The notes under the pieces were generated by a model. That model worked only from the letters and a program-made list of their open reading frames with translations. It had not been told where the DNA came from and did no database searches. A stretch of 32,000 nt of DNA from Bellilinea caldifistulae (GTDB lineage: Bacteria; Chloroflexota; Anaerolineae; Anaerolineales; Anaerolineaceae): positions 30,001 to 62,000 of the forward strand of contig NZ_LGHJ01000015.1 in NCBI RefSeq assembly GCF_001306055.1, given 5' to 3'. Shown here piece by piece: positions 15,119-15,616 of this stretch. The position numbers and the translations under genes were made by a program. How positions within the stretch are numbered: position 1 is the stretch's first letter; every line of letters starts with the position of its first letter.

Positions 15119-15616
15119 TCAGCGCAGCAGAAGCCGGAACTGCTCGCTCAGGCGAAACGGCTGGTGGCCGGCGAACCAGCGCCGCAGGGCGCGCACCGCA
15201 CCCAAAGCGCGCCGGCGGTCTTCCTCGCCGAGCGACAGGGCGGCGAACTCGTCCTCGTCCAGCAGCAGGCTGCTGCCATCGGGGTAGACCAGCAGATCCA
15301 GCGCCAGGTCGACGTACTCCACCCGCCCGTCCAGCAGGCGCGCCGGGCGGGTGATGTTGCAGTACCAGCCTTTCAGGGCATCCCCCTGGCGGTGGTGAAT
15401 TTCAAAGATGTTGTACCAGCGATGGGTGAAGTAGGCTTCGATAAACCGGTCGCCCTTGCACAACCAGACGCCGTGGAAGAGCCGGTCATCGCGGTCAAAG
15501 TAGGCTTGCAGCAGCACACCACGCCCCGAACGCCGCAACACTTCACCTTCGTACTGCCAGACTTCCCTGCCGCTGGTATCCTGCTTGACCACCATCACCG
15601 TTTCAGTCATCGCCAT
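15119..15616 (-). CDS. DUF402 (PF04167-like) domain protein; family includes nucleoside di/triphosphatase Ntdp and FomD
   Basis: RWYNIFEI...LKGWYCNITRPA...VEYVDLALDLLVYPDGSSLLLDEDEF is the characteristic DUF402 core. The likely start is the ATG at 15616 (MAMTETV...), which overlaps the thiQ stop region by 14 nt. Confidence 0.75.
   Translation of the reverse strand: MAMTETVMVVKQDTSGREVWQYEGEVLRRSGRGVLLQAYFDRDDRLFHGVWLCKGDRFIEAYFTHRWYNIFEIHHRQGDALKGWYCNITRPARLLDGRVEYVDLALDLLVYPDGSSLLLDEDEFAALSLGEEDRRRALGAVRALRRWFAGHQPFRLSEQFRLLLR

Follow-up and report, generated by a model that had tools for sequence, protein, structure and literature searches.

The thiamine operon of Bellilinea caldifistulae, which lies in a stretch of 32,000 nucleotides of contig NZ_LGHJ01000015.1 (positions 30,001 to 62,000; hereafter the window), ends in a gene encoding a small DUF402 protein. 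In Anaerolineae, the class to which this organism belongs, DUF402 is likely functionally tied to thiamine salvage by thiamine pyrophosphokinase (TPK). We read the protein, with a probability of roughly 0.4, as a recruited two-metal DUF402 phosphohydrolase that acts as an accessory of TPK-based salvage and would cleave the phosphoanhydride of a thiamine-derived di- or triphosphate; both that the linkage reflects function and which substrate is acted upon we infer. The DUF402 family is widespread, and the few members that have been characterised, Ntdp, Bph, FomD and RNase W, are not known to be linked to vitamins. An earlier prediction made for this stretch, hereafter the original prediction, proposed the gene as a candidate for a thiamine-phosphate hydrolase that would supply TPK with its substrate.

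Gene order and profile matches place the DUF402 gene at the end of a minus-strand thiN-thiB-thiP-thiQ operon (Table 1), as the original prediction had it. The thiamine pyrophosphate (TPP) control that it assumed is borne out by a riboswitch and a hairpin that precede thiN. The DUF402 start was also correctly described as overlapping the end of thiQ by 14 nt: its ATG occupies 15616-15614, with a second in-frame ATG at 15610, and the thiQ stop codon TGA occupies 15605-15603. From the end of the riboswitch to the thiN AUG there are 38 nt with a terminator-like hairpin in between, the 3' arm of which is the thiN Shine-Dalgarno (SD) sequence; the predicted switch can therefore terminate transcription and also mask the ribosome-binding site. 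In a check for an independent promoter, the promoter scan found no minus-strand promoter-like site inside thiQ. Under the single TPP riboswitch, the DUF402 gene is predicted to share a transcript with the importer and TPK genes and to be coupled to them in translation. The importer is ThiBPQ-like as judged by its profile matches, with equivalog scores below the cut-offs of ThiB (TIGR01276, 113 versus 317), ThiP (142 versus 679) and ThiQ (170 versus 298).

The genome (3.66 Mb, 99.7% complete) contains one TPP riboswitch and one DUF402 gene. A profile search of this genome identified neither a ThiE domain nor ThiC, and for ThiL no match above the cut-off but only three weak matches, which are HypE (450 bits), SelD (331 bits) and one AIR-synthase-like protein. 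By its gene content the organism is a salvage-only thiamine auxotroph. The third match is a 339-aa protein of the AIR-synthase superfamily, encoded elsewhere in the same genome (contig C27, L084:1423-2442), that scores below the cut-off with each of the HypE (114 bits), SelD (83 bits) and ThiL (76 bits) models; if the genome encodes a very divergent ThiL, this protein is the one candidate left.

The conservation of the linkage was determined in two samples. The first is an order-level sample of 36 genomes, described as unbiased and with that of the window counted. TPK is encoded in all 36 and the DUF402 clade is found in 31. In at least 26 of these 31 genomes DUF402 and TPK share contig and strand at a distance of 4.3-5.3 kb (25 as determined from coordinates and G250 as confirmed at locus L113), and in four of the 31 the two genes are on different contigs. 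The second sample consists of 80 loci from different species that were found through DUF402 itself. The full thiN-thiB-thiP-thiQ-DUF402 operon is present at 52 of the 80 loci, and at another seven it is cut by a contig end. Four loci show the order thiN-ykoF-thiX-thiY-thiZ-DUF402, in which a different, NMT1-type transporter is combined with a YkoF-like thiamine-binding protein; one of these (L066) has a TPP riboswitch upstream of thiN, and neither ThiE nor ThiL was found in the genomes of this type either. The thiQ-DUF402 pair stands alone at seven loci, with unrelated genes upstream, and the same genomes carry thiN-thiB-thiP elsewhere without the ATPase. The remainder comprises two loci where DUF402 is adjacent to thiQ at a contig end, four without upstream sequence and four at which it is unlinked or apart, three of these without an adjacent thi gene and one (L059) with thiQ 6 kb upstream. 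Outside this sample, a genome of another family of the class (G031) has a thiN-DUF402 pair with a 4-nt overlap and thiBPQ elsewhere. Linkage holds across Anaerolineae in four operon architectures, as well as in the fusions described below; the refuting condition that the original prediction set for itself, a linkage not conserved in other genomes, clearly does not apply.

The gene directly upstream of DUF402 encodes an ATP-binding cassette (ABC) ATPase at 73 of the 80 loci. Its stop and the DUF402 start overlap at 50 of these 73 loci and are separated by 0-30 nt at 13. Such recurrence argues against a chance arrangement. Conservation does not extend to the genes flanking the operon, where the largest cluster of neighbours comprises 19 of 52 loci on the downstream side and 10 of 48 on the upstream side. 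DUF402 and TPK are similarly constrained when compared in the same genomes (mean column identity 56% versus 51%). A few operons have extra sequence or genes between thiQ and DUF402, such as the rhodanese-domain and CarboxypepD_reg-domain genes at L053:7243-8954 and the gaps of 256-582 nt at L009, L020, L047, L050 and L058.

These patterns bear on a first alternative, in which the protein is a generic housekeeping nucleoside di- or triphosphatase that lacks a thiamine-specific substrate and owes its place at the 3' end of the thiamine operon to descent in Anaerolineae. One would not expect a passenger to have remained beside thi genes after the operon broke up in at least three different ways (DUF402 being kept with thiQ, with thiN or behind the other type of transporter), nor to persist while flanking genes turn over freely and with translational coupling kept at 63 of the 73 loci. 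Under a TPP riboswitch, moreover, a housekeeping enzyme would be shut off whenever thiamine is plentiful. We therefore consider this alternative unlikely, even if there are several points in its favour: this is the sole DUF402 gene of the genome, members of the clade in other classes, some from families that lack TPK, are unlinked, core residues are nearly all shared by linked and unlinked members, and the gene has been lost from otherwise intact operons. Fusions would also be cheap, since overlapping stop/start junctions become fusions by a single indel.

Fusion proteins were sought among longer proteins. TPK-DUF402 fusions (P0132, P0134 and P0136) have TPK at the N-terminus and are each encoded by a gene that stands alone in its contig; their loci L126, L128 and L129 yielded no TPP riboswitch. 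ThiQ-DUF402 fusions were identified as well (P0128, P0133, P0135 and P0137). A gene for a PUCC-type transporter of the major facilitator superfamily lies approximately 600 nt downstream of every TPK-DUF402 fusion gene, beyond a convergent Usp gene (L126:9811-11181, L128:9810-11192 and L129:9855-11162), and could be a putative thiamine carrier of this lineage.

The position directly after the ATPase gene, which is also kept behind the unrelated ThiZ ATPase, the persistence with thiQ where the operon is split and the existence of ThiQ-DUF402 fusions would all suit a protein that is an accessory of the ABC importer and binds or acts on its ATPase subunit, for instance in ADP removal or gating of transport. 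This is nevertheless very improbable, given the thiN-DUF402 pair and the TPK-DUF402 fusions that lack a transporter gene beside them. A docking domain common to both ATPases is also missing, since ThiZ has no TOBE domain, and the unlinked members of the clade are not beside ABC genes.

As judged by profiles, the protein is a DUF402 family member of a distinct subfamily outside the Ntdp, FomD and RNase W subfamilies. Its scores are far below the cut-offs of the equivalogs NtdP (NF049996, 39.3 bits versus 280) and FomD (NF049998, 28.2 bits versus 320). A Pfam scan of the protein returned DUF402 alone, with neither a Nudix nor a HAD domain. The AlphaFold model, with a predicted local distance difference test (pLDDT) score of 96.4, matched 7d8g, 5zdn and 3cbt in Foldseek with E-values of 1e-9 to 5e-8 and template modelling (TM) scores of 0.69-0.76. 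The structural matches in this TM range are Ntdp, the DUF402 domain of RNase W/FAU-1, FomD and SC4828, and the modelled fold is the beta-barrel with C-terminal helices that Ntdp, FomD and SC4828 have in common.

In the profile alignment to Ntdp the YCN, D-x3-D and LLDEDE motifs line up exactly, and residues N87, D103, D107, D120 and E123 are invariant in homologue sets of 22 (A1) and 38 (A3) sequences. For Bph of Enterococcus faecalis it was shown that W70, Y85, N87 and D105 are each required for activity (PMC6753144). The corresponding residues here, W67, Y85, N87 and D103, are invariant or nearly so in the subfamily, in which D120-E-D-E123 is also conserved. The residues of the two-metal active site of Ntdp and Bph are thus intact. 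All ligand and metal residues that were mutated in Bph are conserved; therefore nothing suggests that the reaction type has changed. With Mn, Bph hydrolyses NDPs, NTPs, dNTPs and ppGpp but not AMP (PMC6753144), and it is the one DUF402 enzyme that was assayed with a monophosphate. More generally, DUF402 members are described as converting NDP or NTP to NMP through a two-metal mechanism that attacks the terminal phosphate, be it of a di- or triphosphate or of a nucleotide conjugate (PMC11602121).

In archaeal RNase W the DUF402 domain acts as a ribonuclease, and whether stand-alone bacterial DUF402 proteins do so too was left open by the authors of that work (PMC11602121). The structural similarity of our protein to RNase W (TM 0.72-0.76) is as high as that to Ntdp, which would be compatible with an RNase W-like ribonuclease that acts on RNA, perhaps on the transcript of the operon. 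In RNase W, however, a lysine replaces the third metal-binding aspartate and there are extra N-terminal domains (PMC11602121). The protein encoded in the window is a single domain of 165 aa without S1 or 5'-sensor domains that keeps the full acidic DEDE cluster where FAU-1 has DKEK, which places it outside RNase W/FAU-1 and leaves a ribonuclease barely plausible.

The substrate then has to be considered. The original prediction proposed that imported thiamine monophosphate (TMP), or TPP via TMP, is dephosphorylated to free thiamine, which TPK can use without ThiL. The need is real, with TPK present and neither ThiE nor an above-cut-off ThiL, and ThiB-type binding proteins of Escherichia coli and Salmonella take thiamine, TMP and TPP. 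A supply step also fits the fusion of TPK and DUF402 as consecutive enzymes and the place of the gene after that of the importer ATPase; expression at limitation of thiamine diphosphate (ThDP) would make sense, and loss of the gene would be tolerable where free thiamine is available. The guilt-by-association part of that proposal therefore stands. The reaction that it named is only one candidate and not the likeliest. The step from TMP to thiamine needs a phosphomonoesterase, a chemistry unseen in the family, in which Bph is inactive on AMP (PMC6753144) and NDP or NTP is converted to NMP (PMC11602121). That family chemistry is phosphoanhydride cleavage weakens a route from the TMP monoester to free thiamine, and the residues for such cleavage are unchanged here. 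Besides, the known TMP phosphatases that were found by a similar genomic logic are HAD enzymes, and the protein has no HAD domain. The closest precedent of a hydrolase fused to TPK, the Nudix domain of Tnr3, is said, in work by Goyer and colleagues of 2013 (Biochem J 454:533), to be a diphosphatase of oxy- and oxo-ThDP; it was reportedly first suspected to be a TMP phosphatase, and that activity was tested and absent. Altogether we doubt that TMP is the substrate.

In our preferred reading DUF402 would have been recruited in Anaerolineae as an accessory enzyme of TPK-based salvage and, with the single TPP riboswitch controlling the operon, would be made when ThDP is scarce. The likeliest reaction would be hydrolysis of the phosphoanhydride in a thiamine-derived di- or triphosphate rather than of TMP. 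Its preferred version is a housecleaning diphosphatase that would remove the diphosphates TPK makes from degraded or analogue environmental thiamine, such as oxy- and oxo-thiamin. In a second version ThDP would be recovered from thiamine triphosphate (ThTP) or adenosine thiamine triphosphate (AThTP), which may be helpful when ThDP is scarce. An auxotroph that imports any thiamine-like material and pyrophosphorylates it would profit from an editor, and an editor role fits the dispensability of the gene, its co-expression with TPK and its fusion to TPK.

A number of observations weigh against this reading. Linkage to thi genes is confined to a single class, Anaerolineae. At 20 loci from other Chloroflexota classes, with proteins of 28-50% identity, no thi gene was found within 9 kb, and in 401 Chloroflexota genomes there is no co-occurrence of the clade with TPK outside Anaerolineae: the clade is present without TPK in families f16, f23, f32, f34, f38, f45 and f52, and TPK is present with the clade little represented or absent in families f19, f20, f37 and f42. 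Linked and unlinked members share nearly all core residues, the only structured positions specific to linked members being W20, F40, D44 and L108; at known catalytic or ligand residues no difference between the two was found and there is no clear sign of new specificity. Within the order, three genomes (G178, G194 and G346) keep thiN-thiBPQ without DUF402 and two congeners have very divergent copies, which means that the gene is dispensable, hence useful and not essential. In a quick tree, the deep nodes of which are weak, thi-linked forms adjoin each other and PncC-fused forms stand apart, which is compatible with one ancestral recruitment and later rearrangements; this suffices to explain the data, so the architectures are not fully independent events. 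Finally, a ThDP-directed hydrolase induced at ThDP limitation would be wasteful unless it were selective for species other than the cofactor.

Beside these cases of loss, G394 (contig C13, L121) has thiN-thiB-thiP followed by unrelated RecR and NrdR genes; DUF402 was found nowhere in this genome and the partner ATPase of its importer was not located. In 20 genomes of other Chloroflexota classes, neither Nudix nor HAD genes were found beside thiN among the ten neighbours scanned, which are LysE, an NTase-binding protein, an oxidoreductase, a cobalt-ABC permease, MgsA and open reading frames (ORFs) without assignment.

Outside Anaerolineae the DUF402 clade is not thiamine-specific: it is unlinked, shows no co-occurrence with TPK and is often fused to PncC. 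PncC (CinA/PncC, nicotinamide mononucleotide (NMN) deamidase) is fused to the same DUF402 clade in other Anaerolineae and in Thermoflexales (L107:8876-9811 and L111:8884-9846; P0130 and P0138-P0152), and the PncC-fused forms are one clade in the tree. At L141:7001-9014 a ThiQ-DUF402 fusion gene is followed by pncC with an 8-nt overlap. Together, the PncC fusions and L141 suggest a wider role in cofactor-diphosphate salvage. Neighbours of unlinked homologues are not widely shared, with only small groups such as LigA (three loci) and a PhoU-like gene (three loci). The NAD-dependent DNA ligase LigA is encoded directly upstream of unlinked DUF402 at L093:6664-8691, with matching ORFs in L094 and L097, in three different Chloroflexota families; taken with the PncC fusions, this adjacency may indicate a connection with NMN/NAD turnover. 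A bolder proposal, possible but in our view somewhat unlikely, would make the subfamily a dedicated thiamine-cofactor di- or triphosphatase, either a bacterial editor of TPK products that matches the Tnr3 Nudix domain in function without homology to it, or the ThTP/AThTP hydrolase so far missing in bacteria, which would return ThDP when the vitamin is limiting, and the wider Chloroflexota clade with its TPK-, ThiQ- and PncC-fused forms cofactor-diphosphate hydrolases for vitamin salvage.

Further domain combinations were observed. In a Bellilinea-like subgroup the operon-terminal DUF402 carries a C-terminal YbaK/tRNA_edit domain (PF04073; L009:9001-9951, L010:8983-9933, L020:9001-9951 and L140:7001-7960; P0121-P0126), and other fusion partners of the clade are a 2H phosphoesterase, GNAT, a methyltransferase, a PAS/GAF histidine kinase and DUF952 (P0146, P0153, P0129, P0127 and L105:8424-9260).

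The features of the operon are collected in Table 1. The hairpin at its possible end lies between the DUF402 stop and a convergent plus-strand gene ending at 14985. On the other side, a divergent gene for a 406-aa protein (20470-21690, plus strand) adjoins the promoter of the thiamine operon; its product, with an FGxGxHxCxG motif of haem-thiolate-like type, resembles a cytochrome P450.

Table 1. The thiamine operon, its leader and its possible end in the window (positions are those of the window).
Feature	Position	Strand	Evidence and remarks
Promoter-like site TTGACA-17-TATACT	20393..20421	-	11/12 consensus matches, by consensus match alone; directly upstream of riboswitch
TPP riboswitch aptamer (THI element)	20274..20387	-	Rfam RF00059, 62.1 bits versus gathering score 54.3
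Putative expression platform hairpin CCTCCTC...GAGGAGG with U6	20237..20265	-	Read from sequence; directly before thiN AUG
thiN, TPK, 219 aa	19577..20236	-	TIGR01378, 165.5 bits versus cut-off 76.4; Pfam TPK_catalytic and TPK_B1_binding
thiB-type thiamine ABC substrate-binding protein, 351 aa	18433..19488	-	TIGR01254, 268 bits versus 93.4
thiP-like fused double permease, 580 aa	16694..18436	-	Two BPD_transp_1 stretches; 4-nt overlap with thiB stop
thiQ-like ABC ATPase with C-terminal TOBE_2, 353 aa	15603..16664	-	ABC_tran 131 bits, TOBE_2 19.6 bits
SD-like GGGAGAG inside thiQ end	15621..15627	-	Read from sequence; 4 nt before ATG 15616, 10 nt before ATG 15610
DUF402 gene, 165 aa	15119..15616	-	Pfam PF04167, 67.1 bits versus cut-off 23.9, residues 57-124
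8-bp GC-rich hairpin, possible operon end	15021..15039		Read from sequence; without U tract, uncalled by terminator scan

Anaerolineae, which abound in digesters, sediments and wastewater, are thiamine auxotrophs whose whole B1 supply runs through this operon. A conserved, coupled and sometimes TPK-fused hydrolase probably points to an undescribed step of thiamine salvage, which could control damage, recover ThDP from higher phosphates or make phosphorylated vitamers usable. Identification of its substrate would assign a function to a large DUF402 clade and refine models of B1 vitamer exchange in microbial communities.

Among known systems, the stand-alone nucleoside di- and triphosphatases Ntdp (Staphylococcus aureus SA1684) and Bph (E. 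faecalis OG1RF_10435) have the same single-domain size and fold (TM 0.76 to 7d8g) and share the YCN, D-x3-D and LDEDE motifs; they differ by an identity of only about 20%, as well as by the riboswitch-controlled thiamine salvage operon and the TPK and ThiQ fusions found here. FomD, the cytidylyl-2-hydroxypropylphosphonate hydrolase of fosfomycin biosynthesis, shares the DUF402 fold (TM 0.69-0.72) and hydrolyses the phosphoanhydride of a nucleotide conjugate within a pathway to which it is dedicated, a parallel to AThTP or ThDP as a possible substrate here, but identity is 16-17% and no phosphonate cluster is nearby. The step foreseen by the original prediction, which leads from TMP to TPK where ThiL is absent, is carried out elsewhere by HAD TMP phosphatases (TH2 in plants, and bacterial HAD enzymes whose genes cluster with those for thiamin); these have another fold and are phosphomonoesterases that act via an aspartyl-phosphate intermediate. 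In CinA, a COG1058 pyrophosphatase is combined with PncC, and in other Chloroflexota the DUF402 clade takes the place of that pyrophosphatase domain. This parallel, which is one of domain architecture only as COG1058 has an unrelated fold and the protein in the window lacks a PncC partner, suggests a possible theme of cofactor-diphosphate hydrolases. The Tnr3-type Nudix enzymes, oxy- and oxo-thiamin diphosphate diphosphatases (Schizosaccharomyces pombe TPK fusion, yeast YJR142W and plant NUDT20), are likewise fused to or clustered with TPK. They are dispensable and found whatever the biosynthetic route of the host. Their reaction, XDP to XMP and Pi, is of the DUF402 type; with an unrelated fold, the likeness would be one of functional analogy. 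A literature search for DUF402 with thiamine and for thiamine salvage in Chloroflexi yielded no paper that connects DUF402 with thiamine metabolism, and compared with all these systems what is new here is the conserved pathway context in which an already known enzyme family occurs.

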